DNA of 64,000 bases from assembly GCA_902802945.1 (NCBI GenBank), contig CADCOC010000010.1, positions 1,049 to 65,048 on the forward strand. The letters are read 5' to 3'. The notes under the pieces were generated by a model. That model searched no databases and was not told the DNA's origin. It saw only the letters and a program-made list of their open reading frames with translations. The stretch's first letter is position 1, and every line of letters begins with the position of its first letter. Positions 8,009 through 60,573 of this stretch are shown one piece after another. A program made the position numbers and the translations under genes. This DNA comes from an uncultured bacterium (lineage in GTDB: Bacteria > Verrucomicrobiota > Kiritimatiellia > RFP12 > UBA1067).

Positions 8009-8102
8009 AGTTTGGAACAAGGCAGTTTGGCATTTTCATTTCTGAGATGCCAAGGCTATGGGATGAACTTTTTTAAGAAACAAAGTTGAAAGGAAAAAGA
8101 AA

Positions 8103-9560: not shown

Positions 9561-11366
9561 ATGAAGAAGTCCTGTCAGTTCTCCCTCGCCGTATCCGCGC
9601 TGGCCGCCCTCCTCATCACGGGCTGCGAGTCGATCGACACCTCCCTGTTCGGAGGTTCCTTCGGGCGCAACTCCACGGCGATGACGGCCGGCGGCGCCGT
9701 GGCCGGGCAGGACTACGTGATCGGCCTCAAGCCGAGCGAGGCGGCGCAGCAGTACTTCGCGTCCGCCTCGGCCTCCGACGCCAAGACGGTCACCGTGACG
9801 CCCGGCGACGACAAGGGGACGGGCGTCACGTGGACGGACGACGGCGGCATCACGATCCCTCCGGGCGTGACGATCGAGTTCGTGAACAAGGGCTACTGTC
9901 TCGATCCGCACCTCCCCGCCCCGAAGGCGGACGAGGAGATGCAGTTCATCAAGACATCCTGCCTGATCCCCACGCAGCTGCAGGGGACGTACAAAAACCT
10001 TCTGCGCCGCGCGGCGGCGGGCGACGAGGACGTGAAGAGCAACCTCCAGCACCTCATGTGGACGCTCCGCACGGCGGGCAGCAACGACGCCTACGCGAAG
10101 AACCTCACCGACCGCCAGCGCGAGATCCTCGCCGAGTGCGCCGAGGCCGGATCCTTCGACGGCTACTGCCAGGACCTGCACCGCTTCGACGAGTTGAAGA
10201 AACTCGCCATGGCACAAGTTGGTCAAGTGACCGACAAGCTTCAGGTCGAAATCGGCAACGTCACGTACAAGGTCTCGGACCTCCTCGACCCCGAGCTCGG
10301 CAAGCAGAAGGTGGCCGCGCACCTCGGCGAACTCATCCACATGAACGAGTACCTGCCCGTGGTGCACTCCGGCTTCAATTTTGGTGAACTGCAGAAGGGC
10401 ATCTACACGGACATCAAGGGCAACGGCACGCTCTCGTTCAAGGCGAAGGTCGCCAACTCCACCTCCGAGCCGTTCGTGTTCTACCCGATGGACTACGTCG
10501 CCCAGGTCGGCAGCGGCCAGAATATGCAAGGTGCCTTCTTCGCCGCCGCCGACAGCACAATGCGGCAGAGGACGACTAATGGTGAGCATAATAAAGTTGA
10601 AGTCGAAGAAGTTAAAAAACCATGTAATCATGTTTGGAGTGTCGCAAAAGTACCGGGAGATGAATACCAGAAGCGGCGAGGATTGAGAAAGGAATTTCAA
10701 AACGACATTGATAGTGCTCGACAAGATTTAATTAATCGCTTTCGAGAAACGATAACAGATGATGGCTTGGAACATGGGGCTTTGATTTATTATGAAGAGG
10801 GAGTGATTAAAGTCTCTGATTTCATTGACGGGAACAGGGACTGGGAAGTTCGGTTGATGTGGCCTATGGGTATGCTTACTGATTATGTCCAGCGAATTAC
10901 AATGCGAAATGGTAAATATTACGCATATAAGGGGCACACGGGGGAAATTGAAAAAGAAGTGCCGTCAATGTATGGGGATTATGCAAATAACATTTGGTAT
11001 ACTGTGGAAGAATCTGGATCATTTTCCCCAGGAGATGTAATTTCTGGCGTGATGAGAAATCATCCAAACGCAATTCCTCTTGAAATAGTGCATTCTCACC
11101 CTGGTAATAGGTTGTTAGGTAAAGTTGGAAATGGCTTTAGTGGTTCTGATATTTTGTTTGCTGATGAAATGGGAGTGAACATTTCTGTTATTTATAAGGA
11201 TTGGAGCAGTCTTTACAATGATGAAACATATTATCCTGATGGCAATGGTCAATATTCAAGTTTCTCAGAAGGTAAGAAAAAAGGACATTTAGATGATAGT
11301 GTCTCCGATGAGTTACTTCGGAAAATTATGAGGTATAGGTGTAAGAAATGTGGAGCAATACGATGA
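9561..11366 (+). CDS. lipoprotein of unknown function with a low-GC C-terminal JAB/MPN-like (DUF4329-like) domain
   Basis: ATG 9561 (MKKSCQF..LAALLITGC lipobox). C-terminal EHGALIYYEEG ... EIVHSHPGNRLLGKVGNGFSGSDILFA resembles the E / HxH / SxxD JAMM-type motif. The last ~270 codons are ~35-40% GC against ~65% upstream. Confidence 0.55.
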   Translation: MKKSCQFSLAVSALAALLITGCESIDTSLFGGSFGRNSTAMTAGGAVAGQDYVIGLKPSEAAQQYFASASASDAKTVTVTPGDDKGTGVTWTDDGGITIPPGVTIEFVNKGYCLDPHLPAPKADEEMQFIKTSCLIPTQLQGTYKNLLRRAAAGDEDVKSNLQHLMWTLRTAGSNDAYAKNLTDRQREILAECAEAGSFDGYCQDLHRFDELKKLAMAQVGQVTDKLQVEIGNVTYKVSDLLDPELGKQKVAAHLGELIHMNEYLPVVHSGFNFGELQKGIYTDIKGNGTLSFKAKVANSTSEPFVFYPMDYVAQVGSGQNMQGAFFAAADSTMRQRTTNGEHNKVEVEEVKKPCNHVWSVAKVPGDEYQKRRGLRKEFQNDIDSARQDLINRFRETITDDGLEHGALIYYEEGVIKVSDFIDGNRDWEVRLMWPMGMLTDYVQRITMRNGKYYAYKGHTGEIEKEVPSMYGDYANNIWYTVEESGSFSPGDVISGVMRNHPNAIPLEIVHSHPGNRLLGKVGNGFSGSDILFADEMGVNISVIYKDWSSLYNDETYYPDGNGQYSSFSEGKKKGHLDDSVSDELLRKIMRYRCKKCGAIR

Positions 11367-12873: not shown

Positions 12874-12908
12874 TTTTTTGCTAAACGAAAAAAGAAAGGA
12901 AAAAGAAA

Positions 12909-13307
12909 ATGAAAGTTGTGAAGACGCTGTTGTGCATGCTGTGCATGTCAGTGCTGTGCGGTTGTGCCTTGTTTGGAGGTCGCCGCGGCGAGGAGATTCA
13001 GCCGATTGAGAATTGCCCAGTGACAATCTTTGGCGGGCAGTCCATGAAAGAAGTTGTCATGCGAGCGGCCCACCAAAAGCTGTGGTCGCCGCAGCCGATC
13101 GACGATGGCACGGTGCGTTGCACGCTTAACCTTCGCGGCCATCAGGTGGTCGTTGACGTGGTGTACACGGACTCCACGTTCTCGATCAATTACGTCTCCA
13201 GCGCGAACATGAACTACGACCCCACGCTGAACACGATCAATCCCAAATACAACCAGTGGGTGCGCAATCTTCAGCGCGAGATCATCGGACAGGGACTGAA
13301 GCGGTAA
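12909..13307 (+). CDS. small lipoprotein, unknown function
   Basis: Signal plus lipobox MSVLCGC. Coding-like composition. 132 aa. Confidence 0.6.
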   Translation: MKVVKTLLCMLCMSVLCGCALFGGRRGEEIQPIENCPVTIFGGQSMKEVVMRAAHQKLWSPQPIDDGTVRCTLNLRGHQVVVDVVYTDSTFSINYVSSANMNYDPTLNTINPKYNQWVRNLQREIIGQGLKR

Positions 13308-13930: not shown

Positions 13931-14404
13931 ATGTTTATGAAGAAAATGATTGTGTTCGCTGGGCTTATCGCCGCCTGTTCGGCGTCTGCTCAGTTTCTCC
14001 AGAACTTGACGCAGGCTCTTCTAGAGCCGGAGCCCGCCCCTGCCCCCGCGCAGCCCGTGCAGGTGGTCCAGCCGCAACCGGTCGTGCAGCAGCAGGTCGT
14101 GCAGCCCGTGCAGCAGGTCACGACCACTACGGTGCAGCCCGTGCAGCAGGTTACGACCACCACGGTGCAGCCCATGCAGCAGGTCACGACGACGACCGTT
14201 CAGCCTGCCCCTGTGGTCGCGCCTGCCCCCGTGGTGGTCGTCCCGCCGCCGCGTCCGGGGTGGCAGCCCTGCCCTCGCTGCGGGGGCCGTGGCAAGGAGG
14301 AGCACGCGATGGGCTTCAAGGTGAAGCGCTGCAAGCTCTGCGACGGCAAGGGCTTTCTGCCCCCGCCGCCTCCGCCCCGCCGCCACCACCATCGGCGGTA
14401 CTAA
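13931..14404 (+). CDS. secreted repeat protein with a C-terminal CxxCxGxG zinc-finger-like motif
   Basis: Signal peptide MKKMIVFAGLIAACSASA. VQPVQQVTTTT x3. CPRCGGRGKEEHAMGFKVKRCKLCDGKG resembles a DnaJ-type zinc finger. Confidence 0.6.
   Translation: MFMKKMIVFAGLIAACSASAQFLQNLTQALLEPEPAPAPAQPVQVVQPQPVVQQQVVQPVQQVTTTTVQPVQQVTTTTVQPMQQVTTTTVQPAPVVAPAPVVVVPPPRPGWQPCPRCGGRGKEEHAMGFKVKRCKLCDGKGFLPPPPPPRRHHHRRY
14099..14197 (+). repeat. 33-nt coding tandem repeat, 3 units
   Basis: GTGCAGCCCGTGCAGCAGGTCACGACCACTACG is repeated three times with a few substitutions. Confidence 0.85.
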
Positions 14405-16387: not shown

Positions 16388-16503
16388 TATTGTTCACAAA
16401 TCGCAATTGTCACAATTGTTCACAAATCACAAATGGCAAATGAAATCACATTTGTATTTGTGGCAATTGTGCCATTTGTGAACAATTGAGATTTGTGAAC
16501 AAT
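16388..16503. repeat. AT-rich inverted-repeat element, copy 1 (MITE/REP-like)
   Basis: Two forward ATTGTTCACAAAT boxes and two reverse ATTTGTGAACAAT boxes around a CACAAAT/ATTTGTG-rich core. The left arm ATTGTTCACAAATCGCAATTGTCACAATTGTTCACAAAT equals the reverse complement of the right arm of the copy at 43908-44024, except for 1 nt. Confidence 0.85.
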
Positions 16504-22173: not shown

Positions 22174-22880
22174 AGATTCCACGAAGCGATCTGGTGAAAC
22201 GGATGCTTTTGATAGCGTTCTCGAGCCTTGTTGTCTGCCTCGCCAATGCGGCAAATGTCATCTGGCGTGAAGGTTACGAAGGACAACGATTCGGATGGGC
22301 CGATTGGACAGGATGGGGAGGCCCTTCGGATGCTTGGGGGCTTGGAATCTCAGAAGTCGTTGGAGGAAGGTATTTTGAGGTTTATTTCTGGATGGAGACG
22401 CTTGTAGATGATGGAGGGACTTCGGTTCGCATTCATGCGTCAGATTTCTTGGCCGACATCCCTTTTGATCCTAATTATACAGGTTTCGTTCCCGTAAACG
22501 TTATTCAGGCGGAGGCGGGCGGCATCATCAGCGCGGCGAATACGAAGGGGCGTGACAATCGATATTTCTTTGCCAATGGTACCGATGTAGGCGACGAGTT
22601 GCGACGCGATTACGATATCATAATTCCACTTGAAGGTGATCGGAGATTCTACTTCGGACTCAGCATAGAAATGGATCCCAATCGTCTATATGGTTGGGTG
22701 GAGGCACAGGCGAACGAGAACGGCGAACTTTCGTCTTTGGCCTATGCTATCGACCTTGACGGCGGGCCTATGATCGTGGGGGGCGGCCCGGCTATTCCCG
22801 AGCCGTCGGCGGCGGTGCTGCTGCTCGTGGGCGGCGCGCTGCTGGCGTTAAGACGGAGGAGAACGAATCCCCGAATATGA
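22170..22880 (+). CDS. PEP-CTERM sorting-domain protein
   Basis: N-terminal signal peptide. C-terminal IPEPSAAVLLLVGGALLALRRRR. ATGA overlap with the upstream gene. Confidence 0.8.
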   Translation: MKIPRSDLVKRMLLIAFSSLVVCLANAANVIWREGYEGQRFGWADWTGWGGPSDAWGLGISEVVGGRYFEVYFWMETLVDDGGTSVRIHASDFLADIPFDPNYTGFVPVNVIQAEAGGIISAANTKGRDNRYFFANGTDVGDELRRDYDIIIPLEGDRRFYFGLSIEMDPNRLYGWVEAQANENGELSSLAYAIDLDGGPMIVGGGPAIPEPSAAVLLLVGGALLALRRRRTNPRI

Positions 22881-23497
22881 ACCTAAGATTGAAGAAAGTT
22901 TTGGCGAGTCTGTTGTGGGGTCTCGCGGTCATCCCAGTCTTTTCTGCAAATGTCGACTGGAACAAGGCATTTGTGGTTTATGAAGGACTGGATTATTCCG
23001 GGGTTTACGAGCAATACACGATGGGAAGCCCTTTTCTGAACATGAAGGCGTTGAGGAATGGCAACGCTCTTGAGATATGGGCGCAGCCAGAGGTGAATCT
23101 TGTGGCGGCAAATACATTTGTCCTACTGAGTAGCGTTTTGATGGAAAGTGTGATTTCACCCGAAATGATTTACGGCTCGTCCGATTACTTTGCCTATGCT
23201 GTCTGTACTGACTCCGTTGGGGGATACGAGGAGAAGGCTGACTATTCGGTGACAATTACTCAAGGCGAATCTGTTTATCTTGGGTTCGCCAGCCAACCGG
23301 CAACACTGACCGATCCTGTCACATGCGGCTGGATTGAGTTAGGCCTTGATGGCGAGGGATATTTGACCGTAATTCAATCGGCCTGGGATCGTGACGGTGA
23401 TCCGATTCGTGTGGGTGCCACCCCTGAACCGTCGTCGGCGCTGCTACTGCTCGTGGGCGGCGCGCTGCTTGCACTGCGGCGGCGGGCTTTGGTATAA
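22877..23497 (+). CDS. PEP-CTERM sorting-domain protein
   Basis: N-terminal signal peptide. C-terminal TPEPSSALLLLVGGALLALRRR. ATGA overlap with the upstream gene. Confidence 0.8.
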   Translation: MNLRLKKVLASLLWGLAVIPVFSANVDWNKAFVVYEGLDYSGVYEQYTMGSPFLNMKALRNGNALEIWAQPEVNLVAANTFVLLSSVLMESVISPEMIYGSSDYFAYAVCTDSVGGYEEKADYSVTITQGESVYLGFASQPATLTDPVTCGWIELGLDGEGYLTVIQSAWDRDGDPIRVGATPEPSSALLLLVGGALLALRRRALV

Positions 23498-23504: not shown

Positions 23505-26201
23505 ATGACAGCGCGTTATCCATCGTCTATCCGCGAGGAGGAACTGAAGAACAAGGTCGCCGCCGACTTCTTCGGCGCGTTCGACTGCACCCGCATCATC
23601 GGCAACGTGGATTTCTGCGTGGCGGCGAAGCGGAGCGCGCGTCCCGAGTCCCTCTATTGGGCCGAGGCGAAGAATCATCCGACCGATGTCCACCAGATGC
23701 TGGCCCAGCTGATCCTTACGATCGGCAGGGCGGCCAGCCCTCTGGCCGCTGCGGCGGGCGCGGGGCGACAACCCTACCATGCGGACGAACCTCCCAAGTT
23801 CGCCGGATGCTTCGACAACGAGAAGATCGCCTTCGTCGAGTACCACCACATCCTCCCCGTCTTCAACCTCAACGACTTCAACTGGACGCAGACGCCCTCC
23901 GCCGTGGACGGAAAGACCGTCGAGACCGTCCGCGGCGTCGTCCCCTCTGACAAGATCGTCGTGTTCCGCTTCGGCGCGGACGATGCGGAGATCAAGGCGT
24001 TCATCCGCCACAACTTCACGTCCGGCGAAGGCCCCGCACTCGCCACCCCCATCGACCGCAACAACTTCACCTTCATCTACCAGAAGTGGCGCGCCGAGGT
24101 GATGCCGCACATCGACGCTCCGTGGGACGTCCTCAAAAAGAAGTACGCCCTCTACGACCGAGACTTCTTCCTCGCCGAGATGAACGTGGACGACAACGGC
24201 ACGCCCGAGGTCGTGGACGACCGCCCCGCCGAGGACTTCTACATCACCTTCGACGTAAACGACAAGAAGCCGTATTGCATCCATCGCAAGAACGAGGACG
24301 AGTTTGACATCAGCATGTCTTTCGGCTTTAAACCCGACGGACTCTCCGCCTACGCCTCCTTCTGGCGGCGGTACAAGCGCCCGCCCAAGCGCGAATACTG
24401 GGACTTCATCGTCTCTCGCCTCGACCTGCTCGTTCCGCAGGACGTGCGCGAGCGCAAGGGATCTTTCTTCACGCCAGCCATCTGGGTTGAGAAGTCGCAG
24501 CAGTACATCGCCGCCGTGCTTGGTGAGAACTGGCAGGACGAATACTATGTGTGGGACTGTGCGGGCGGTACGGGCAACCTCGAGGTCGGTCTCACGAACA
24601 AGTACCGCGTCTGGGTCTCGACCCTCGACCAGCAGGATGTGGATGTGGTCAAGGAACGGGTAAGGAACGGTGCGAACCTCCTCGAAAGCCACGTGTTTCG
24701 CTTCGACTTCCTCAACGATCCCTTTGACAAGCTGCCGCAGGGGTTGAGGGACATTCTCGCCGATCCAGAAAAGCGTAAACGCCTTGTTGTCTACATTAAC
24801 CCGCCGTACGCTGAGGCGGGGGATGTCCGCCAGCGTTCTGGCACAGGAAAAAACAAAAATGATGTCTCGGTCGTCCATGTCACGTACGACCGTTACTTGG
24901 AGAAGATCGGTATTGCCGGTCGCGAACTTTTTGCGCAGTTTTTCATGCGCATCCATGATGAGATTCCTGGGTGCGTCCTTGCCGAGTTCTCGAAGCTGAA
25001 GCACCTTCAATCTCCCAACTTCAAGGCGTTTCGACAAGCGTTTCGCGGTACGCTCGAAAAGTGTTTCATCGTTCCCGCAGATACTTTCGACAATGTGAAG
25101 GGCGACTTCCCAATCGGTTTCTTCGTGTGGCGGCTAGAGGATCTTGCTTTCGCTACAGGGAGGATAGGAGATTGGGAGGTCGGGAGAGATTGTAAGCAAA
25201 CTCCTAAACTCCAAGTCTCCCAATCTCCCAGCAGCGAAAGCAATTCAACAAATGGCGTGTTCACGTCAACCGTGGCGGACGTGTACGATCGTAAGGGCAA
25301 GTTCATCGGCACGAAGACGATTCTCGCGTATGACGATGTGGCCAACATCGGGAAATGGGTAAACTCTTTTCGCCATGACGACGATGTGCATCTTGGCTTC
25401 ATGAGCAATGGGCGTAACGATTTCCAAAATACTAATCTTGTCTATTTCATTAATGACAGGAATCAATTGTCTACACCGCGAGGTTGGTGGATGACTCCAC
25501 CGAACTTGATTCCAATGTGTATTTTTGTCGCTGTGCGGCATAGCGTAAAGGCAACATGGTTGAATGACCGAGACACTTTTCTTTATCCAAATGACGGATG
25601 GCAGAATGATTTCGGTTTTCAGTCAGATTGCCTTGTGTATACGCTCTTTTCCGATTTCAACGCTATCAAGTCCAAGTATGGTGTCAACCATTGGATCCCG
25701 TTCACGGAGGAAGAGGTGGGGGCGAAGGATTGCTTCGCGAGCCACTTCATGAGTGACTGGCTGGCGGGGCGCGGGGCGGCGGCGCGCACGGGGTGCGCGC
25801 CCTACCAGGGGGACTTGTTCGCGGCAACGGGCGACACGCCCGTTGGCCTTGTGAACGGGCAAGATGCACGTTCCCCCAGTTGTGAAGCGGCGAGAGCGCC
25901 GCTTCCCCGACGGGCGCACCTCGGGGCACTGTCGCTTCCCGCGCGGGCGGTGATGGACGCCGGGCGGGAGTTGTGGCGGTACTACCACGCGCAGCCGGGT
26001 GCGAATCCGAACGCCTCTTACTACGACATCCGCCTGCATTTCCAGGGCGTGAAGCGCACCTCATCCGGCAAGGAACAGATGAACGCCACCTCCGCCGACG
26101 AAACCTACAACAGACTTCTTGCCGCCCTGCGCGCCGCCCACAAGGCCCTTGCCGCGCAGATCGCCCCGAAGGTGTACGAGTATGGGTTTTTGAAGCGTTA
26201 G
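23505..26201 (+). CDS. gamma-class N6-adenine DNA methyltransferase fused to an N-terminal PD-(D/E)xK-like region (MmeI-like type IIG/IIL RM candidate)
   Basis: Methyltransferase motif X GSFFTPAIWV, motif I YVWDCAGGTGNLE and motif IV VVYINPPYAEAG. N-terminal NVDF...YWAEAKNH resembles a D...ExK nuclease motif. 898 aa is close to MmeI size. Confidence 0.65.
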   Translation: MTARYPSSIREEELKNKVAADFFGAFDCTRIIGNVDFCVAAKRSARPESLYWAEAKNHPTDVHQMLAQLILTIGRAASPLAAAAGAGRQPYHADEPPKFAGCFDNEKIAFVEYHHILPVFNLNDFNWTQTPSAVDGKTVETVRGVVPSDKIVVFRFGADDAEIKAFIRHNFTSGEGPALATPIDRNNFTFIYQKWRAEVMPHIDAPWDVLKKKYALYDRDFFLAEMNVDDNGTPEVVDDRPAEDFYITFDVNDKKPYCIHRKNEDEFDISMSFGFKPDGLSAYASFWRRYKRPPKREYWDFIVSRLDLLVPQDVRERKGSFFTPAIWVEKSQQYIAAVLGENWQDEYYVWDCAGGTGNLEVGLTNKYRVWVSTLDQQDVDVVKERVRNGANLLESHVFRFDFLNDPFDKLPQGLRDILADPEKRKRLVVYINPPYAEAGDVRQRSGTGKNKNDVSVVHVTYDRYLEKIGIAGRELFAQFFMRIHDEIPGCVLAEFSKLKHLQSPNFKAFRQAFRGTLEKCFIVPADTFDNVKGDFPIGFFVWRLEDLAFATGRIGDWEVGRDCKQTPKLQVSQSPSSESNSTNGVFTSTVADVYDRKGKFIGTKTILAYDDVANIGKWVNSFRHDDDVHLGFMSNGRNDFQNTNLVYFINDRNQLSTPRGWWMTPPNLIPMCIFVAVRHSVKATWLNDRDTFLYPNDGWQNDFGFQSDCLVYTLFSDFNAIKSKYGVNHWIPFTEEEVGAKDCFASHFMSDWLAGRGAAARTGCAPYQGDLFAATGDTPVGLVNGQDARSPSCEAARAPLPRRAHLGALSLPARAVMDAGRELWRYYHAQPGANPNASYYDIRLHFQGVKRTSSGKEQMNATSADETYNRLLAALRAAHKALAAQIAPKVYEYGFLKR
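25167..25228. repeat. perfect 12-bp inverted repeat with 38-nt spacer inside the methyltransferase ORF
   Basis: GGAGATTGGGAG (25167-25178) pairs with CTCCCAATCTCC (25217-25228). Confidence 0.8.
25781..25940. repeat. ~160-nt in-frame chain of palindromic mini-elements
   Basis: In order: GGCGCGCA-CGGGG-TGCGCGCC+CTACCAGG; AACGGGCG-ACA-CGCCCGTT; ACGGGCA-AGA-TGCACGT; GAAGCGGCG-AGAG-CGCCGCTTC+CCCCGACGG; degenerate ...CACTGTCGCTTCCC. Confidence 0.85.
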
Positions 26202-31170: not shown

Positions 31171-31236
31171 GCTTAGAGCTTAGAGCTTGAAGCTTAGAGA
31201 GCTTGAAGCTGAGAGATTGGAACTTGGAGTTTTGAG
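31169..31236. repeat. degenerate heptamer tandem repeat (GCTTAGA/GCTTGAA) in the bamA-skp spacer
   Basis: Sequence gagcttagagcttagagcttgaagcttagagagcttgaagctgagagattggaacttggag, about 9 units. Confidence 0.7.
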
Positions 31237-31263
31237 AATAAAGTTGAAAGAGAGAAAATTAAA

Positions 31264-31836: not shown

Positions 31837-32869
31837 CCTAGCCGCACGGCTCGGCGGTGTCCTCGAGGGGGACGACGTAGAGCTCGCCGCCTGCGCGGGC
31901 CTCGAGGAGGCCCGTCCGGGCGATCTCTCTTTCTGCAAGGACGCGAAACACGTTTCGCTCGTGCAGGCCACGAAGGCGTCCGCGATTCTCCTGCCGCCGG
32001 ACTGGACGCATGGCGCGCCGTGCGCCATCATTCGCGTGGCGGACCCGAACCACGCCTGCATGGCCGCAGCAGAGATCTTCGCCCCGCCCGCCCCCGTGCG
32101 CGCGCCGGGTGTCCACCCCACTGCCATCATCGATCCATCGGTGCGCCTCGGCACGAACGTCCACGTGGGCGCGTACACGATCATCGAGAAGGGTACGGAG
32201 ATCGGCGACGGCTGCGTGATCGAGGCGCAGGTTTTCATCGGCGAGAACTGTACCGTCGGCGCCGGCACGCACATCTATCCGCAGGTGACTCTGCGCGAGG
32301 GCACGAAGCTCGGCAAGGGCGTGATCCTGCACTGCGGCGTACGCCTCGGCGGCGACGGCTACGGCTACAACACGACGATGGAGAACGGCCTTCCGAAGAT
32401 CGAGAAGATTCCGCAGCTCGGCATCGTGGAGCTCGGCGACGGCGTGGAGATAGGGTCGAACACCACAATTGACCGCGCGCGCATCGGTCGTACCTACATC
32501 GGTCCGATGACGAAGATCGACAACCTCGTGCAGATCGGACACAACGTGAAGGTGGCGGGCTACTCCGGCATCATCGCGCAGGCCGGCGTGGCTGGTTCCA
32601 CGCAGATCGGAACGGGCTGCCTCATCTGGGCGCAGGCAGGCATTTCTGGGCACATCAAGATCGCGGACGGCGTGCAGGTGGGTCCTCAGGCGGGCGTGCC
32701 GCAGTCGCTAGACGGCAGCGAGAAGTACGTAGTGGGCACTCCCGCCACGTCGCTCAAGAACGTCGCGGCCATCACCCTCGCGCCGAAGATGATCATGAAG
32801 CTCCGCCAGGACGTCAAGGCCCTCAAGCAGGACGTCGCGAAACTCGCCGGCACGACAGGGCCTGCATGA
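31823..32869 (+). CDS. lpxD: UDP-3-O-(3-hydroxyacyl)glucosamine N-acyltransferase
   Basis: ATG 31823 ([18 protein letters not shown]). Left-handed beta-helix hexapeptide repeats ([26 protein letters not shown]...). Synteny with bamA-skp. Confidence 0.88.
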
Positions 32870-33591
32870 AACCAGTCGTCGTCATACCGACTTACAACGA
32901 ACGCGAGAACGTGGAGGCCATGGCCGCCGCGGTTCTCGCAGTACTGCCGCCCGAAGGGCAGTTGTTGTTCCTCGACGACAACTCGCCGGATGGCACTGGC
33001 GCGGTGATTGACTCAATCTGTGCGCGCGAGGCACGCGTCCACGTGATGCACCGCGAAAAGAAGGAAGGTCTCGGTCGCGCATACGTGGCTGGATTCGCCG
33101 AGGCTCTGCGGATGGGGGCGACGCACGTCATTGAGATGGACTGCGACTTCTCGCACGATCCGAAGGACGTTCCGCGCTTGCTTGCGGCGGTCGCGGGGCG
33201 ACCGCCCTACCAGGAGGGCGGAGCGGACGTCGCCATCGGTTCGCGCTACGTGAAGGGTGGTAAGTGCGTGGGCTGGCCGTTCCGCCGCTGGCTCATCTCT
33301 CGCGCGGGCGGCATCTTCATCCGTTTCATGCTCGGTGTTCCGGTGAAGGACCCCACGGGCGGCTTCAAGTGTTTCACGCGCCGCGCGCTTGAATTGCTCG
33401 GTGACTTCTCGTCGATCAAGTCCTTCGGCTACTCGTTCCAGATGGAAATGAACTACCGGATGTGGAAGGCGGGCCTGAAGCTCGTCGAGGTTCCCATCAC
33501 CTTCTCCGAACGCCGCGCCGGCGCATCGAAGATTTCCGGTTCCATCGCCGTTGAATCCCTCAAGATGGTCTTCAAGCTGAAGTTTAGCTGA
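32866..33591 (+). CDS. GT2 polyprenol-phosphate mannosyl/glycosyl transferase (Dpm1/Ppm1-like)
   Basis: Motifs [35 protein letters not shown] and AIGSRY. 241 aa. Confidence 0.82.
33189..33214. repeat. hairpin + CCCTACCAGG mini-element inside the GT2 gene
   Basis: GGTCGC-GGG-GCGACC followed by GCCCTACCAGG. Confidence 0.6.
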
Positions 33592-33675: not shown

Positions 33676-35571
33676 ATGAAAGCTGGAGAAATCAAAAAAG
33701 CCGTGGTACTGGCGGCTGGTTTCGGAACGCGACTCAGGCCGCTCACGCTAGTGCGGCCCAAGCCGTTGTTGCCCGTGTGGGGCGTTCCGATGCTCGAGCG
33801 CATCCTACGCATGCTCGAGTCGTGGGGCGTGGAGGAGATCGCCGTGAACGCCCACTGGCAGGCACCGCAGGTGCGCCAGTTCGTCGCAACACGCAAGGGC
33901 CGCGCGAAGGTGACGGTGGCGGAGGAGCCGGAGATACTCGGCACGGGCGGCGTGCTGAACCCGCTCCGGTACTTCCTCGGCGACGGCCCGCTCGGTGATC
34001 GGGCCCTACCAGGTGGCTCGTTCTGGCTCGTGAACGGGGACGTCGTGGCGGAGGGGCTAGACCCGCAGCCGATCGTGGACGCCTTTGAACGGAGCGGCCG
34101 TTTCGCCGCGTGCTGGCTCTCGGATACCCAGGGCCCGCGCACGGTCGAGGCCGACCCCGAGGGACGCATCTGCAACTGGAAGAGCGACGTGCCGGGTGAC
34201 GCCGGCACTTACACCTACTGCGGATGCGCGCTCCTCTCGCCGCAGGTGCTCGGCTACGTGGCGCCGTCCGGCTTCTCCACGATCGTGCAGGCCTATGAGA
34301 AGGCGATGATGGAGGACGCGAAGTTCGTGGTGGGCGTGACCGAGGAACAGGCGTTCTGGGGCGACGCCGGCACGCTCGAAAGCTATCTCGAGATCCACAA
34401 CGCGCTCGATCCCGATCGCTTCGAGGAAAACCCGAACGTGCTGTTCGAGGGCGTGAAGCTCGTCGACACCGCCGATCTCGGCGGGTGCGTGGTGACGGGC
34501 GGACTCGTGGGCGGCGCGTTTGAGCGCACCGCGCTTGTGGGACTCGACCAGATCGACGCGCCGCGTCTCGCGGCGCTTGCGGACGCGCTCGGCTGGCCGC
34601 GTGCGGACGTGGCGTGCGGCTTCCTCGGCGCGCGCGGCAGCGACCGCAGTTTCTGGCGGTTCGTCCATGGCGACGACCGCGCGATCGCGATCGAGTACGA
34701 CGACGCGAAGCGTCCCGAGAACGCGCGCTACGCGTCTCATGCACGCCTCCTCGCGGAGGCCGGCGTGCCCGTGCCGCGCGTGTTGGCGGACGTGCCCGAG
34801 CAGAAGGCGCTTGCGCTCGAGGACATCGACGGCGACTCGCTCGAAGACCGCGCGAACCGGCGCGGCGCCGATCTCGTGAAACTCTACACGCCGGTCGTGA
34901 AGGCGTTGCGCACGCTGCACGAGAAGGGCACCGAGCTCGCGCTCGCGCAGGACGTGAAGCTCGAGCCGTCGTTCGGTCCCGAGCTCTACGCCTGGGAACG
35001 CGATCTCTTCGAGACGTACTGCGTGAAAGAGCGCTTTGGCTATGACGCCCTCCCGAAGGACGTGCGCGCCGAGCTGGAGGACGTGGCGAGTGAGCTGATG
35101 CGCCAGCGTCCCGTGCTCGTGCACCGCGACTTCCAGAGCTCGAACGTACTTTACCGTCCGGCCCGCTCGGTGATCGGGCCCTACCAGGCGGATTTCGCGT
35201 TTATTGATTTCCAGGGGATGCGACTCGGCGCGGCCGCGTACGACCTCGCCTCGCTCCTGTACGACCCCTACGTGCCGCTCGACGAGAAGACGCGCGCCTC
35301 GCTCGCGCGGGTTTATCCCGTGGAGAAGCTCGCGTTCGGCGCGGTGCAGCGTCTCGTGCAGGCACTCGGCGCGTTCGGTCGGCTTGCCTCCGTGGGACAG
35401 CCGCAGTTCGGACGCCACGTGGCGCCCGCGCTCCAGAACCTGCTCGCGGCGGCGGACGAGGCGGACCTCGACGCGCTCGGCGCGTTCGCGGAGGACCTCA
35501 TCGCCAAGGAGGAGATCCGCCTCGGCCGTTTCCACCACCACCATCACGGTGAAGAAGGCGAAGAGGAATGA
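33676..35571 (+). CDS. fusion of a sugar-1-phosphate nucleotidyltransferase and an APH-fold sugar kinase (MurU-AmgK-like, peptidoglycan recycling)
   Basis: N-terminal KAVVLAAGFGTRLRPLTLVRPKPLLPV. C-terminal LVHRDFQSSNVL ... IDFQGMRLGAAAYDLASLLYD. Ends HHHHHGEEGEEE. Confidence 0.65.
   Translation: MKAGEIKKAVVLAAGFGTRLRPLTLVRPKPLLPVWGVPMLERILRMLESWGVEEIAVNAHWQAPQVRQFVATRKGRAKVTVAEEPEILGTGGVLNPLRYFLGDGPLGDRALPGGSFWLVNGDVVAEGLDPQPIVDAFERSGRFAACWLSDTQGPRTVEADPEGRICNWKSDVPGDAGTYTYCGCALLSPQVLGYVAPSGFSTIVQAYEKAMMEDAKFVVGVTEEQAFWGDAGTLESYLEIHNALDPDRFEENPNVLFEGVKLVDTADLGGCVVTGGLVGGAFERTALVGLDQIDAPRLAALADALGWPRADVACGFLGARGSDRSFWRFVHGDDRAIAIEYDDAKRPENARYASHARLLAEAGVPVPRVLADVPEQKALALEDIDGDSLEDRANRRGADLVKLYTPVVKALRTLHEKGTELALAQDVKLEPSFGPELYAWERDLFETYCVKERFGYDALPKDVRAELEDVASELMRQRPVLVHRDFQSSNVLYRPARSVIGPYQADFAFIDFQGMRLGAAAYDLASLLYDPYVPLDEKTRASLARVYPVEKLAFGAVQRLVQALGAFGRLASVGQPQFGRHVAPALQNLLAAADEADLDALGAFAEDLIAKEEIRLGRFHHHHHGEEGEEE
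33985..34013 (+). repeat. 29-nt hairpin mini-element, copy 1 (GGCCCGCTCGGTGATCGGGCCCTACCAGG)
   Basis: Identical to 35160-35188. Read here as GPLGDRALPG. Confidence 0.9.
35160..35188 (+). repeat. 29-nt hairpin mini-element, copy 2
   Basis: Identical to 33985-34013. Read here in another codon phase as ARSVIGPYQ. Confidence 0.9.
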
Positions 35572-39460: not shown

Positions 39461-40342
39461 ATGGCAACAGACGAACGAATACAGGCGCTTGATCCGGCAA
39501 CAAAGCTTTCCGTGGTGCTGTGTGACTGCACGGCAGCGGCGGGGGCGTTGGCGAGGGGGCACCTCTCCGGGCCCACGGCGTCGTATTACCTCGCCGAGGC
39601 GCTGGCGGGCGTTGCGCTGCTCGGCGCGGAGACGTCGCAGGACGAAGAGACCGTGACATTCCGCCTCGACTGTCCTGGCCCGCTTGGCGGGTTCCTCGTG
39701 GAAGCGACAGCCGCCGGCACGTTGCGCGGCTACACGAAGCAGAAAATCCTCAACGACTTCGACGGACTCGGCGCTCCGAAAGATGCGAAGGTGCTGGGCG
39801 AAACGGGCACCTTCGAGATCATTCGATCAATCCCCGGCGCGATCCTCGCCTCCGGCGCAGTCGCGGTAGGGGCGCCTCGCAGAGGCGACCGCTCGGAAAC
39901 TTTCGTCGCCCAGGGGCTCGACGCCTTCTTCGCGCAGTCGCTCCAACGGCGCGTGCGCACGGCCGTGGCGGCGGCGGCGGGCGACGACGGCGTGCCCGTC
40001 TACGCACGCGGCGCGCTCGTGGAGTGTCCGCCCGACGGCGACGCCGCCGCGTTTGAGGCAGTGGCGGAGACGTTTGCTTCCGGCGCGGTGCAGAAGGCGC
40101 TTGCGTCGGGAACGGTCTCCGCGCGCACGCTCCTGAAAAAGCTTGGCCTCCCGCAGGCGGAGTTGCGTAGCACGACTCCGCTTTCGTTCGCGTGCCGGTG
40201 CAGTGCAGAACGGGCGGAGGCGATGCTCGCTGCGATTCCAGAGGCGGAGCGCGCCGCGTTGCCGCCACAACTCGACGTTACGTGCCACATGTGCGGCCGC
40301 ACGTGGACTGTCTCAACACGCCGCACGGAGAAGGGGGCCTGA
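39461..40342 (+). CDS. hslO: Hsp33 family redox-regulated chaperone
   Basis: C-terminal zinc centre CRCSAERAEAML...VTCHMCGRTW (CxC...CxxC). 293 aa. Confidence 0.88.
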   Translation: MATDERIQALDPATKLSVVLCDCTAAAGALARGHLSGPTASYYLAEALAGVALLGAETSQDEETVTFRLDCPGPLGGFLVEATAAGTLRGYTKQKILNDFDGLGAPKDAKVLGETGTFEIIRSIPGAILASGAVAVGAPRRGDRSETFVAQGLDAFFAQSLQRRVRTAVAAAAGDDGVPVYARGALVECPPDGDAAAFEAVAETFASGAVQKALASGTVSARTLLKKLGLPQAELRSTTPLSFACRCSAERAEAMLAAIPEAERAALPPQLDVTCHMCGRTWTVSTRRTEKGA

Positions 40343-42120: not shown

Positions 42121-43140
42121 ATGAAAACAAGCCTTTTTCTTTTGGCGGGTACACTGACGTTGTGCGCGCAGGGGGCGTGGTACTGGCCGTTCGGCGCGGA
42201 CAGGGACAGCACCAACGCGCCGCCGCGCCTGCACCGTCTGCTCGAGCCGGCGAACGACTTCATCGAACTTGCCCAGGACGCTTCGCTAGAAGGCGACACT
42301 GCCAAGGCGCTGGAGAACTACCGCTTCGCGCTTGAGGAGCTCGACCGCGTGGAGACGGAGTACCCGGACCGCGCAGCCAGCGCCGAGTTCGCCCCGCTTC
42401 GTCTGCGGCGTGCAGCCTGCACTGCGGCCATCGACGCCATCCGCTTCGCGCAGGTCAACGAGAACATGCGCCCCGTGTCCGTAACCGATACGACCGAGTT
42501 GGAGAAACGTTGGGAAAAGGAACAGGGCCTCTCAGACGAAGAGGAAGATAAGAAAAAAACGGAACCGCCCAAAAAGGAAGATGAGGCCAACCCGAAGGAT
42601 GAGGCGAAGAAGGAGCCGCCTCCGCCGAAGGAGGATGTGAAACAACCTACACCACATCCGAAAGAAGAAGCGATGGTACCTACACCACCGCCGAAAGAAG
42701 ATGATAAGAATGCTTCTCCTCCGCCGAAAGAAGAGAAGAAGGTTGATGATGTGCCGCAAAGCGGGCCTACAAATGTTCTGCCAAAGGACTGGGACGGGCG
42801 CATTGCGCAGGCGATGGCTGATCTCCGGGCGCAGGACTACGCGGCCGCCGATGTGCTGTTGGAGTCCATGTTGAATGAACGCCCGAAGGATTTGAACGCA
42901 TTGCTGTTGCGTGCGGCGGCGCAGACGGGCACGCAGAACTACTATGCGGCGCAACGTACGCTTGAGCGGGCGATGCGCGCGCATCCGAGGTCGTATCTGC
43001 CGTACTACAATCTCGCGAACCTCCTTGTCATTCAGGGGGGCGACCTTGAGTCGGCGCGGGAGTACTACGAGCTCGGCCGAACGGTTGGTGGGCCGGTCAA
43101 CAAGGCGCTTGAGGCGCGACTGAAAGGAGTCGGAAAATGA
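42121..43140 (+). CDS. secreted TPR-repeat protein with a Pro/Lys/Glu-rich linker
   Basis: Signal peptide MKTSLFLLAGTLTLCAQG. PPPKE(D/E)-type repeats. TPR-like helices at both ends. Confidence 0.65.
   Translation: MKTSLFLLAGTLTLCAQGAWYWPFGADRDSTNAPPRLHRLLEPANDFIELAQDASLEGDTAKALENYRFALEELDRVETEYPDRAASAEFAPLRLRRAACTAAIDAIRFAQVNENMRPVSVTDTTELEKRWEKEQGLSDEEEDKKKTEPPKKEDEANPKDEAKKEPPPPKEDVKQPTPHPKEEAMVPTPPPKEDDKNASPPPKEEKKVDDVPQSGPTNVLPKDWDGRIAQAMADLRAQDYAAADVLLESMLNERPKDLNALLLRAAAQTGTQNYYAAQRTLERAMRAHPRSYLPYYNLANLLVIQGGDLESAREYYELGRTVGGPVNKALEARLKGVGK
42535..42750 (+). repeat. coding low-complexity repeat (PPPKED/PPPKEE units)
   Basis: EPPKKEDEANPKDEAKKEPPPPKEDVKQPTPHPKEEAMVPTPPPKEDDKNASPPPKEEKK. 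Confidence 0.75.
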
Positions 43141-43907: not shown

Positions 43908-44024
43908 TTATTGTTCACAAATGTTCAATGCCATCATTGTTCACAAATCACAAATATAAATGAGGCTTGGCATCTTGACATTGATATTTGTGAACAATTG
44001 TGACAATTGAGATTTGTGAACAAT
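43908..44024. repeat. AT-rich inverted-repeat element, copy 2 (MITE/REP-like)
   Basis: Same four-box architecture as 16388-16503. It starts 1 nt after the stop at 43907, and its last bases overlap the ATG at 44023. Confidence 0.85.
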
Positions 44025-57829: not shown

Positions 57830-60556
57830 ATGAAGCGCAACAAGAAAACAAGCAAGTGCAGACTCATATTGGGTTTGCTTGCAATGACCGTGTCGATTCC
57901 GCTCTTTGCAGCGGAAGTGACGCCAGAGCAGGCGCAGACGGCTGCTGAAAACTGGATCAGGCTCAGTCCGAGGCGGATGGGGTCGACATTCCGCTCATGC
58001 ACTGCCGATGAAATGGAGACGGTTCGCAATAGCTCTGGACGAGCGGCGTTCCACGTGATCAATTTTGAGGGGGGCGGATACGTGGTGACGTCTGGCGACA
58101 CCCGTCTGTCCCCGATCGTTGCGTTTTCCACTTCAGGACGGTACAGCGGCAACAGAAACAGTCCCCTTTACGCGCTTTTGCGGGGTCAGGAGGATGTTGT
58201 GTCCGCCCTGAACGAATACGACGAAATGGAGTCAGCTGCCAACGTCAGCATCCAGGGCACCGGGCACCAGAACATGCCACGCCATCGAAACGTCGATGTC
58301 AGCCCGTTTGTCGATGCGGAGCTGGAGTGGGCTGCGCTTTTGTCTTCCAAGCCAGATGACGACGACGCGGGCGGCAGTTCCGGCGTCCAAGTTGCCAGAG
58401 AGTCCCAGGAGGCGATTTCAGACATACGCGTAAGCCCGCTGCTCAAGACCAAATGGGGGCAAAATGGCGCTTGGGATTATGACAGCAATTACATTCCACT
58501 GTACAATTTCTACAGTCCCGTCGAAGAATATCCGTGCGGATGCGTCGCCACCGCCGGCGCGCAGATCATGTACTACCACAGGGCGCCGAGCGGATCCATC
58601 GCACAGTTCTCGAACACGTGCTATGTCGATGGAAGCTCGGTGACGCTAAATTCCATCGCCGGGACATTCGACTGGAGCAACATGTTCCTGGAGTACGTCT
58701 GGTGGGAGGCGATATACCCCGACCCATTCCCGACCCCGCCCTCTCTCACCCAGCGGCAGGCCGTCAGCAAGCTGACTTATAACATCGGCGTCGCGATCGG
58801 GATGAACTACAATGGAGGGGGATCGAGCGGACAGGGCAACGTGTTCGTCTCCCAGCTCAAGTCCCGGTTCGGCTACAAGTCCGGGTCGTGGATTTGGTAT
58901 GACATCGACACGGTCGACCGTCTGACTGACTACGAAGATCGGCGGGCCGATTTCAACAATGCGCTCTACGCAAGCCTCGATGCGAAGATGCCGGTGTTCC
59001 TGGCCGTCGTGGGCACTAGCGCGAATGGCAAACGTGCCGAGCATGCCGTCGTTGCCGATGGATACGGCTATATGTCCGGCTATGGCTATACTCATTTGAA
59101 CGTGGGCTACGAGGGTGATTGCGACCTTTGGTACAAAATGGTCTATCCAGACGCTACGGTGGACATTGAGTTTACTGCATGCGTCTACAAAAGGTTCTCC
59201 GGCCTTGGTTTCAACATCCATCCAACGCTTGCAGGCGACATCCTCTCCGGCAGGGTGCTCAAATCTTCCGGTGCCCCCGCTGCCGGCGCCACGGTGACGC
59301 TCTACGATGGTTCGGGCAATGTCGTGAAGACCTCCGCCACCGACGCGAAGGGGCTCTACTCGATCAGGTTCACCGTGGCAGGCAACTTCAAGGTCAAGGC
59401 GGTGTCTGGAAGCCTCGAATCGTCCACCGTTCCGGTAAGCCTGTCACGCACCGTAACCTTGGATCAGGGCCTTGAATTCGAAAGAGGCGGCAGAACGGGG
59501 AACAAATGGGGCGTCAATCTGACGCTGGACGGTACGTCTACGCCTACACCTACCCCTACACCTACACCTGGGCCTACGAGCACCGTGACGTTCGGCAAGA
59601 ACGGCGGCACGGGCGGCGACAACTACGTGACGGCCACGTACGGCGCGGCGATGCCGACCCCGCGCACCGCGCCCACGCTCTCCGGCTGGACGTTCGCGGG
59701 CTACTGGGACACGCTCGCTCTCGATGAAAAGGGAAACCCGAAGGGCAAGCAGTACTATGACGCGAACATGAAGAGTGTCCGTGTCTGGGACAAGAACGGC
59801 GCGGTAACGCTGTGGGCGAAGTGGACGAACAAGGTGACATTCGGCAAGAACGGCGGTACGGGCGGCGACAGCTACGTGACCTGCACGAGGGGCCAGCCGA
59901 TGCCGAAGCGCACGATGCCGACGAAGTCCGGCTACGTGTTCGACGGCTACTGGACCTCCATCGGCGCGGGCGGGGTCAAGTACTACAACGCCGACGGCAC
60001 GAGCGCGCACACCTGGGACAAGTCGGGGAGCGTCACGCTCTGGGCGAAGTGGGTGAAGCCCGTCGCCTGCAGGGTGACGTTCGGCAAGAACGGCGGCGCG
60101 GGCGGCGACAACTACGTGACTGCGACGACTGGCAAGGCGATGCCGACGCCGCGTACGGCCCCTAAGCGCACGGGCTGGACGTTTGGCGGCTATTGGGACA
60201 CTCTTGCCTGCGACGCGAAGGGCAATCCGCTCGGCAAGCAGTACTACGACTCGGGCATGAAGAGCGTCCGTGCCTGGGACAGAACATCCGACGTGACTCT
60301 CTGGGCGAAGTGGACCGTGCGCGTGAAGCTCGGCAAGAACGGCGGCACGGGCGGCGATGACTACGCGACCGTCATCTTCAACCAGCCGTTCCCGAAGAGG
60401 ACGATGCCGACGAAGTCGGGATATGCCTTCGGCGGGTACTGGGTGTCGGCGGGCAGCCGCACGGGCCAGTGCTACAACGCGGACGGCACGGGTACCTCCT
60501 CGATGAAGTGGACGACCGGCGGCACGCCGACGATCTGGGCGCTTTGGACGAAATAA
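57830..60556 (+). CDS. secreted C10-family (streptopain-like) cysteine peptidase with four C-terminal Listeria-Bacteroides (Flg_new) repeats
   Basis: ATG 57830 with signal peptide. Cys motif YPCGCVATAGAQIMYYH and His motif EHAVVADGYG. Then 4 x ~77-aa units starting V(T/K)(F/L)GKNGG(T/A)GGD. Confidence 0.8.
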   Translation: MKRNKKTSKCRLILGLLAMTVSIPLFAAEVTPEQAQTAAENWIRLSPRRMGSTFRSCTADEMETVRNSSGRAAFHVINFEGGGYVVTSGDTRLSPIVAFSTSGRYSGNRNSPLYALLRGQEDVVSALNEYDEMESAANVSIQGTGHQNMPRHRNVDVSPFVDAELEWAALLSSKPDDDDAGGSSGVQVARESQEAISDIRVSPLLKTKWGQNGAWDYDSNYIPLYNFYSPVEEYPCGCVATAGAQIMYYHRAPSGSIAQFSNTCYVDGSSVTLNSIAGTFDWSNMFLEYVWWEAIYPDPFPTPPSLTQRQAVSKLTYNIGVAIGMNYNGGGSSGQGNVFVSQLKSRFGYKSGSWIWYDIDTVDRLTDYEDRRADFNNALYASLDAKMPVFLAVVGTSANGKRAEHAVVADGYGYMSGYGYTHLNVGYEGDCDLWYKMVYPDATVDIEFTACVYKRFSGLGFNIHPTLAGDILSGRVLKSSGAPAAGATVTLYDGSGNVVKTSATDAKGLYSIRFTVAGNFKVKAVSGSLESSTVPVSLSRTVTLDQGLEFERGGRTGNKWGVNLTLDGTSTPTPTPTPTPGPTSTVTFGKNGGTGGDNYVTATYGAAMPTPRTAPTLSGWTFAGYWDTLALDEKGNPKGKQYYDANMKSVRVWDKNGAVTLWAKWTNKVTFGKNGGTGGDSYVTCTRGQPMPKRTMPTKSGYVFDGYWTSIGAGGVKYYNADGTSAHTWDKSGSVTLWAKWVKPVACRVTFGKNGGAGGDNYVTATTGKAMPTPRTAPKRTGWTFGGYWDTLACDAKGNPLGKQYYDSGMKSVRAWDRTSDVTLWAKWTVRVKLGKNGGTGGDDYATVIFNQPFPKRTMPTKSGYAFGGYWVSAGSRTGQCYNADGTGTSSMKWTTGGTPTIWALWTK
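59585..60553 (+). repeat. array of four Listeria-Bacteroides repeat units (coding)
   Basis: Units start VTFGKNGGTGGDNYVTATYG, VTFGKNGGTGGDSYVTCTRG, VTFGKNGGAGGDNYVTATTG and VKLGKNGGTGGDDYATVIFN. Confidence 0.85.
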
Positions 60557-60573
60557 GTTGACGGGAACCTTCG

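Follow-up and report, generated by a model that had tools for sequence, protein, structure and literature searches.

The window analyzed here is a 64,000-nucleotide stretch of contig CADCOC010000010.1 (assembly GCA_902802945.1, positions 1,049 to 65,048 of the forward strand) from an uncultured bacterium of the Kiritimatiellia, and the element in question is a 29-nt repeat that lies twice inside one of its genes, a MurU-AmgK-like open reading frame (ORF) on the + strand (33676-35571, 631 aa). The two copies are probably separate insertions of one subfamily of GTAG-tagged repetitive extragenic palindromes (REPs) in a rumen Kiritimatiellia lineage.

Two copies of a 29-nt repeat in one gene

The host gene encodes a nucleotidyltransferase fused to an APH-type kinase (NTP_transferase and APH domains; the Pfam families PF00483, PF12804 and PF01636 were precomputed on homologues), and the nearest named homologues of this ORF come from Kiritimatiellia. 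Most of 37 aligned homologues close with a His-rich stretch and an acidic tail (FHHHHHGEEGEEE; 35530-35571 in the window), which is missing in three of the most distant ones. The window contains two exact copies of the repeat, GGCCCGCTCGGTGATCGGGCCCTACCAGG, one at 33985-34013 and one at 35160-35188, both on the + strand; a third copy is absent from the window at up to three mismatches, and no match appeared in any of 100 shuffled sequences, with none predicted by chance. The identity between the two copies stretches to 33 nt with a single mismatch, cGGCCCG...CCAGG[T/C]GG. Copy 1 (33985-34014, + strand), composed of GGCCCGCTC-ggt-GATCGGGCC followed by CTACCAGG, adds 30 nt in frame to the nucleotidyltransferase (MurU-like) domain, where it starts at codon position 1 and is read GPLGDRALPG, whereas copy 2 (35160-35188, + strand), the same 29-mer within the APH-type kinase (AmgK-like) domain, has its first base at codon position 3 and gives (P)ARSVIGPYQ. 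The original prediction of one element translated in two codon phases of the same gene was reproduced, with exact matches at both sites, and its proposal that the identity is kept at the nucleotide level agrees with the use of two sense phases here and of two antisense frames at other loci. Two 29-mers in one gene are an ordinary outcome of a dense repeat family.

Both segments had also been proposed to be insertions relative to homologues, and the alignment of orthologues gave empty alleles in close relatives at both sites. Among the 37 aligned homologues, GPLGDRALPG is confined to the two proteins most similar to that of the window (96-97% identity) and is missing at 93% identity or less; conservation at the protein level is contradicted by the distant orthologues, which lack the peptides. 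In the DNA of related contigs, site 1 is filled in L001, L014, L033 and L034 and empty in L002 and L003, the empty sequence being ...GA|CGG(G/T)CCGTTC... and the filled one in L001 ...GA[CGGCCCGCTCGGTGATCGGGCCCTACCAGG]CGGACCGTTC..., that is, exactly 30 nt longer, with a boundary made ambiguous by CGG. The gain at site 1 amounts to 10 aa and that at site 2 to a net 8 aa.

Site 2, whose empty sequence is GA(C/T)GGC(A/T)CGTTC, is empty in L001 and in L014 (the GTDB species representative RUG10619), and its insertion is the sole coding indel in the 8 kb over which the window was aligned with these two contigs; the net change of 24 nt corresponds either to a gain of 30 nt with a loss of 6, or to a gain of 24 nt with flanking substitutions. 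Within one 90% protein cluster, the site has an empty allele (DGTFAF), an allele with one copy (the window and P0275), an allele with two tandem copies (P0279, PARSASGPYQAARSVIGSYQA) and a fourth allele with another 8-aa insert, DAQERGPSLEN (P0003, P0028, P0269, P0276 and P0277). The allele of the window, with both site 1 and site 2 filled, is also present in two other metagenome assemblies, L033 and L034, which were assembled independently, and is therefore no assembly artefact. The DNA of the fourth allele (L002, 5430-5470) contains a 24-nt insert, GACGCGC-agga-GCGCGgTC followed by CTTCC, at the codon position of copy 2, and resembles a REP that reached this hot spot earlier and has since degenerated. 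By these comparisons both copies are recent insertions, site 2 being filled only in the window's own lineage.

Anatomy and dispersal of the unit

In its general form the unit is about 26-30 nt long, and its 9-bp GC-rich stem (GGC...GCC) closes a GGN triloop and is followed by an unpaired CTACC, often with AGG after it; on the opposite strand it reads (CCT)GGTAG and then the palindrome. The hairpin that had been described for the main variant of the window, with a 6-bp stem and a 9-nt loop, does exist, although the stem is better drawn at 9 bp, with one C.T mismatch, and the loop as a GGT triloop. Relatives with a perfect 9-bp stem are only one or two bases away from this variant, and the perfect version in L019 differs from it by one base. 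The predicted DNA folding energy of the units ranges from -6.8 to -12.8 kcal/mol.

Of the 275 CTACC sites in the related contigs (about 290 kb), 54 come right after a perfect hairpin of at least 5 bp, compared with only 2-18 of 145-698 sites for control tails of permuted letters, except for CCTAC and CCCTA, two permutations that pick up the same tail from one or two bases before it. At least 16 distinct stem variants carry CTACC directly after the stem, although CTACC was the search criterion for these variants and the independent evidence for the tag is the hairpin enrichment; a family of different stems with one common tail had been anticipated, and these 16 variants bear it out. Examples of these stems are GGCCCGCTC-ggc-GAGCGGGCC, GGCGGTCGC-ggg-GCGACCGCC and GGCGCGCAC-ggg-GTGCGCGCC, and GGCGCG-ctcggtgat-CGCGCC is the main variant of the window with a compensatory C/G swap (GGCCCG/CGGGCC versus GGCGCG/CGCGCC) and the same loop. 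Stop codons occur in two of the six frames of the 30-mer, TGA on the sense strand and TAG on the antisense strand, and all four open frames are in use (GPLGDRALP, ARSVIGPYQ, GRARSPSGP and LVGPDHRAG/VGAPRRGDR). Conservation at the level of the protein is ruled out by this use of four reading frames and both strands. The short string CCCTACCAGG has five exact matches in the window, all on the + strand, and six at up to one mismatch, versus 1.7 expected by chance; its occurrence at 41731 was rejected as an element, being without a hairpin and conserved in L001 as YPYQ codons, and probably represents ordinary codons.

A relaxed scan of the window with inspection identified seven elements, a dimer being counted as two, and all seven lie inside genes. 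The same architecture had been expected at 33189-33214 and 25781-25808, and in each case a perfect 9-bp stem, a GGG loop and CTACCAGG were found, at 33186-33214 and 25781-25809. The former, a member of a second subfamily on the + strand (GGCGGTCGC stem), lies inside a GT2 glycosyltransferase gene (32866-33591, + strand, 241 aa) and is read AVAGRPPYQ; the latter, of a third subfamily and also on the + strand (GGCGCGCAC stem), is read AARTGCAPYQ in a linker of a methyltransferase-like gene (23505-26201, + strand, 898 aa) with an NPPY motif and two REP-filled linkers. The same gene carries a degenerate head-to-head dimer on both strands (23724-23778, 84% identity to the GT2 copy), with a left unit on the - strand (23724-23750, GGCAG followed by GGCGGCCAG-ccct-CTGGCCGCT) and a right unit on the + strand (23753-23778, GGCGGGCGC-ggg-GCGACAACC followed by CTACC). 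The remaining copy, on the - strand of an Hsp33 chaperone gene (39461-40342, + strand, 293 aa), is GGTCGCCTC-tgc-GAGGCGCCC followed by CTACC (39865-39890) and gives VGAPRRGDR in antisense; in L001 the stem of this copy is perfect. Among relatives, the first linker of the methyltransferase-like gene is empty in L032, holds a single reversed REP in L030 and the dimer in the window, and the second is filled in every relative examined at the DNA level, with subfamilies that differ among homologues (AARSVIAPYQ, AVAGRPPYQ and ARDARPYQ). The presence of different REP subfamilies at the same two linkers across relatives therefore points to hot spots with turnover. A strand bias was considered and rejected: the strong copies of the window are on the + strand save one, but in the syntenic relative L003 the orientation of the copies with respect to these genes is reversed, and therefore no consistent replication-strand bias can be claimed.

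Beyond the window, a scan of the 20-nt core GGTGATCGGGCCCTACCAGG against 185,579 species-representative genomes gave 11 matches. Three are on contigs of RUG10619, namely the orthologous site 1, a 940-aa ORF with two tandem 30-nt units (GPLGDRALPG twice) and a 1221-aa ORF in which the copy is read CSVIGPYQA. The other eight are in unrelated phyla and were set aside as protein-level or chance coincidences rather than cross-phylum conservation of the 20-mer: five encode LVIGPYQG (L004, L005, L006, L008 and L010), in a gene (...W.GFYR...LVIGPYQG...C.RI...) that, from its flanking sequence, we take to resemble GAF/free methionine-R-sulfoxide reductase, and three have other coding contexts. Convergence at the codon level can thus make exact 20-mers recur where genomes are GC-rich. 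The JGI metagenomes, when scanned, added 13 Kiritimatiellia-type contigs with single units and arrays, in all of which the 27-nt core CGGCCCGCTCGGTGATCGGGCCCTACC is invariant. In L016, three or four tandem units with a period of 42 lie in a CPBP-type protease, within a loop that separates membrane helices, and their antisense reading is GRARSPSGP; three units with a period of 45 lie close to the C-terminus of a 1056-aa protein in L020; and in L024 a Ser/Thr kinase holds as many as three antisense units in its linker. Orthologous ORFs differ in the number of units, with two in L029 versus four in L026 and one in L015 versus two in L011, and the arrays are head-to-tail in L011, L016, L020 and L026, a head-to-head dimer being present in L031 besides that of the window. 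A CRISPR-like array was rejected on the basis of periods of 30, 42 or 45 nt, near-identical linkers of 1-19 nt and the position of the arrays inside ORFs. No match to the element was found in IMG/VR, and a phage origin is unsupported.

The variant with the C.T mismatch recurs at about nine unrelated loci of related rumen Kiritimatiellia contigs, on both strands, and as a common derived feature of unrelated sites this mismatch shows copying and not convergence. A local event, in which copy 2 was duplicated or converted from site 1, 1175 bp upstream, with no mobile family implied, would account for the 29-nt identity (33 nt with one mismatch) of two copies on the same strand 1.2 kb apart, and the empty targets are alike, GACGG(G/T)CCGTTC at site 1 versus GA(C/T)GGC(A/T)CGTTC at site 2. 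Conversion through the flanks nevertheless predicts the same phase and the same flanks, whereas copy 2 is shifted by 2 nt, its flanks differ and the identity ends at the ends of the element; besides, confinement of the 29-mer to a single internal duplication is contradicted by the presence of the core, with the same mismatch, at those nine or so loci. The local reading is largely refuted by the copies in other genes and is very improbable, and even with site 1 as the donor the event would still be one within a dispersed family. Over all loci, about 19 distinct sites were recorded in the 290 kb of related contigs, of which about 15 are in long ORFs with flanks of high GC content at third codon positions, a proportion close to the coding density expected, though not measured, for such a genome.

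Concerning the location within the proteins, the structure of Pseudomonas putida MurU (4y7t) has a gap exactly opposite GPLGDRALPG, and an AlphaFold2 model of the 631-aa protein, built from the homologue alignment with a mean predicted local distance difference test score (pLDDT) of 85, gives values below 50 for both segments. In this model the copy 1 segment (residues 104-113) is a coil between a helix (98-101) and a strand (116-120), and the copy 2 segment (residues 500-503) a coil between two strands (491-493 and 507-509). A gap of seven residues is opposite the GT2 copy (AVAGRPPYQ) in the structure of Pyrococcus dolichol-phosphate mannose synthase (5mlz), and the Bacillus subtilis structure 1vzy, aligned with Hsp33, lacks 8 aa at a point a few residues past the copy, where the alignment is poor. 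The absence of the segment from 4y7t and the low-confidence coil modeled at both sites place the insertions in loops, as had been suggested.

Copies at domain boundaries and linkers, as in the L024 kinase, the methyltransferase-like gene and the loop of the L016 protease, might also reflect a function kept by the host, with the elements acting as mRNA-stability or translation-pausing hairpins, protein-binding sites or flexible linkers and spreading by selection. The compensatory stem changes and the invariant tag are in favor of such a role, and for REPs of other bacteria cellular roles have been documented (PMC3733652, PMC8266576). Nevertheless, near-identical strains differ in whether a site is filled and in copy number, no peptide is conserved because the sequence is translated in four frames and in either orientation, Rfam at gathering thresholds returned no match, and hence no RNA family, over the whole window, and the conservation of the stem is equally expected of a transposase substrate. 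A host-kept function is for these reasons regarded as unlikely.

Class of the repeat and its spread

The features described above are those of GTAG-tagged REPs, which have been defined as units of 20-40 bp with stems mostly of 6-9 bp, loops of 2-3 nt and an unpaired GTAG at one end, forming subfamilies by complementary stem changes and found singly, as dimers or in clusters in which the flanking DNA is repeated as well (Di Nocera, De Gregorio & Rocco 2013, PMC3733652). In Opitutus terrae (GTAG-17 to GTAG-20), a host that also belongs to the Planctomycetes-Verrucomicrobia-Chlamydiae (PVC) group, intragenic REPs, ORFs hit twice and REP-encoded peptides of 7-30 aa have been reported (PMC3733652; peptide list in Additional file 3). 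The repeat of the window agrees with those of O. terrae in unit size, GC stem, short loop, GTAG end, complementary subfamilies, arrangement as singles, dimers and clusters, copies within ORFs and PVC host, and differs in the host phylum, Kiritimatiellota, and in the stem sequences; none of the O. terrae peptides compared (e.g., GTGVPPV and VGPALAAG) equals those found here. The original framing as a small palindromic family inserting in frame is upheld, but not as a novel class, since GTAG-tagged REPs had already been published (PMC3733652): the repeat is a GTAG-tagged REP in Kiritimatiellota, and in-frame copies, a gene hit twice and differing phases all have precedent. A search of the literature for GTAG REPs of Kiritimatiellota found none.

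As in the REP/BIME elements of Escherichia coli and the SMAG elements of Stenotrophomonas, GTAG is directly 5' of the palindrome (PMC2817692, PMC8266576), many copies have a CT directly before the tag (CCT-GGTAG), and the proposed substrate is a single-stranded hairpin; in contrast, those elements are overwhelmingly extragenic and their cognate REP-associated tyrosine transposase (RAYT) is flanked by REPs, whereas no RAYT was found here, and direct head-to-tail arrays within ORFs, common here, are rare in the genomes of E. coli and Stenotrophomonas. Membership among the classic Rickettsia palindromic elements (RPEs) is not supported, RPE-1 being far longer than 26-30 nt (about fivefold according to the original prediction) and from an alphaproteobacterial host, and the short RPE-4 and RPE-6 are CGTC-tagged REPs rather than GTAG-tagged ones (PMC3733652). 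Miniature inverted-repeat transposable elements are likewise small, non-autonomous, dispersed and at times in frame, but have terminal inverted repeats derived from insertion sequences and fixed target-site duplications, and neither is present here: in the comparison of filled and empty site 1, the sole inverted repeat is the hairpin, and the ambiguity of the junction is at most 3 nt (CGG). The mobile GC clusters of yeast mitochondria and the very small dispersed repeats of cyanobacteria are also short GC-rich palindromes that sometimes lie in coding regions; they are not known to carry a GTAG tag, and with their other hosts the similarity is one of resemblance only.

New copies are inferred to be made by a REP-associated tyrosine (HUH, Y1) transposase, which would recognize the hairpin in its folded single-stranded form, take GTAG as its guide and cleave at a CT close by. 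In vitro, the TnpA-REP enzymes of E. coli, Stenotrophomonas and Marinomonas bind folded single-stranded REPs, use GTAG as a guide and usually cut at CT (PMC8266576). Survival inside genes may be favored by a gain in length that is a multiple of three, by four of six frames being free of stops and by peptides rich in Gly, Pro, Arg, Ala and Ser; copies in surface loops and linkers would escape purging because they keep the frame, are stop-free and encode tolerable peptides, and would therefore build up inside genes, tandem copy number then shifting by slippage.

Several observations weigh against this interpretation. An ORF for a RAYT or IS200-like transposase, the search for which had been recommended in the original prediction, was not found in the roughly 365 kb examined (about 290 kb of it Kiritimatiellia) with a regular expression for the HUH...Y motif, with tblastn queries consisting of the E. 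coli RAYT, which agrees with the published alignment, and an IS200 TnpA, or with a hidden Markov model built from 11 sequences of RAYTs and related transposases (Di Nocera Additional file 5); a protein search with Oter_2468 of O. terrae retrieved 26 relatives, which look Opitutaceae-like and not like Kiritimatiellia. The copies are mostly intragenic, seven of seven in the window and about 15 of 19 overall, which is unlike classical REPs, and the copy census covers the window and about 290 kb of related contigs rather than a complete genome. Both sides of the stem change in five of nine pairs, a covariation count that is partly circular, and hence supporting only, because the variants had been selected for pairing. 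Finally, the junction at site 2 is not clean. As to the transposase and the intragenic position, some REP-bearing species are without REPtrons (RAYT genes flanked by REPs), and REPs in general are predominantly downstream of coding regions, although intragenic members of the GTAG family are documented (PMC3733652).

A locus of the expected kind is present in L035 (68% GC, taken as Opitutaceae-like), in which a Y1 transposase 47% identical to Oter_2468 is flanked by three copies of GTAGGGCGCGAGCT(C/T)GCTCGCCGCC in the same orientation (9880-10060 and 10700-10760). This locus is clearly a REPtron, though of another PVC lineage; its REP starts with GTAG followed by GGCGCG, like the window variant at 25781, a likeness that is suggestive only.

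The failure to find a RAYT in the 365 kb is also in line with a spread that needs no transposase, by gene conversion or template switching through GC microhomologies (CGG/GGC) together with slippage, in which the hairpin would make the polymerase stall and switch strands. Such a process would fit the variable number of tandem units in orthologous ORFs (L029/L026 and L015/L011) and the series of zero, one and two copies at site 2, the different subfamilies at the same methyltransferase-like linkers among relatives, and the resemblance of the CGG(A) after the insertion points to the 5' end of the element itself. It does not, however, account for the first arrival of the unit at the empty site 1 (GAC|GGNCCG) or in unrelated genes, and gives no reason for the invariant unpaired GTAG, a tag that RAYT-type enzymes use as a guide (PMC8266576), so that transposase-free spread is considered rather improbable in comparison with REP insertion by a transposase.

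Other repeats of the window and meaning of the family

Besides the REPs, the window contains several other repeats. The 12-mer TTGTTCACAAAT has eight exact matches, versus 0.11 expected with one mismatch allowed, in two clusters taken as intergenic (16390-16502 and 43911-44023), each with two direct copies 26 nt apart and then two inverted ones, and this four-site arrangement looks like a candidate common operator for a DNA-binding regulator. An AT-rich leader that ends in the start codon, AAAGGAAAAAGAAAATG, is identical at 8089-8105 and 12895-12911, before at least two genes, with looser copies near 16492 and 31242, against a background of 61% GC. The intergenic region 31172-31260, upstream of a gene starting near 31262, contains short tandem heptamers (CTTAGAG/CTTGAAG) and is highly diverged from that of L014 (RUG10619), the flanking genes being about 92% identical. 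In-frame tandem repeats of 33 nt at 14099-14205 and 42592-42734 encode 11-aa units (VQPVQQVTTTT-like and PKEE-rich) and are unrelated to REPs; four or five diverged copies of a coding module of 250-490 nt with YYD...WAKW-type motifs, at 59581-62604, are probably the repeated domain of a large surface protein; and two adjacent small genes have 81%-identical ends (22797-22859 and 23423-23485) that encode PEP-CTERM-like tails, PEPS(A/S)(A/L)LLLVGGALLALRRR.

The family described here extends the GTAG REPs to Kiritimatiellota, in a population with most of the observed copies inside genes, and explains recurrent low-confidence loops of 8-10 residues as repeat-derived, which is useful for annotation and protein modeling. 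The spread of REPs is still described as poorly understood (PMC8266576), and the interest that remains lies in the large share of intragenic copies, in the change still visibly going on among rumen strains and in the transposase yet to be found; the filled and empty alleles, the series of zero, one and two copies and the swaps of subfamilies are found among co-occurring strains, and therefore junctions and rates could be read from existing rumen metagenomes. Somewhat speculatively, the REP family here might now be mainly an intragenic, frame-keeping loop and linker element that turns over between co-existing rumen strains and is possibly driven by a transposase other than a classical RAYT. A family of this mainly intragenic kind would represent a steady source of variation in the length of protein loops and linkers, and would provide a natural system for the direct reading of REP insertion junctions.

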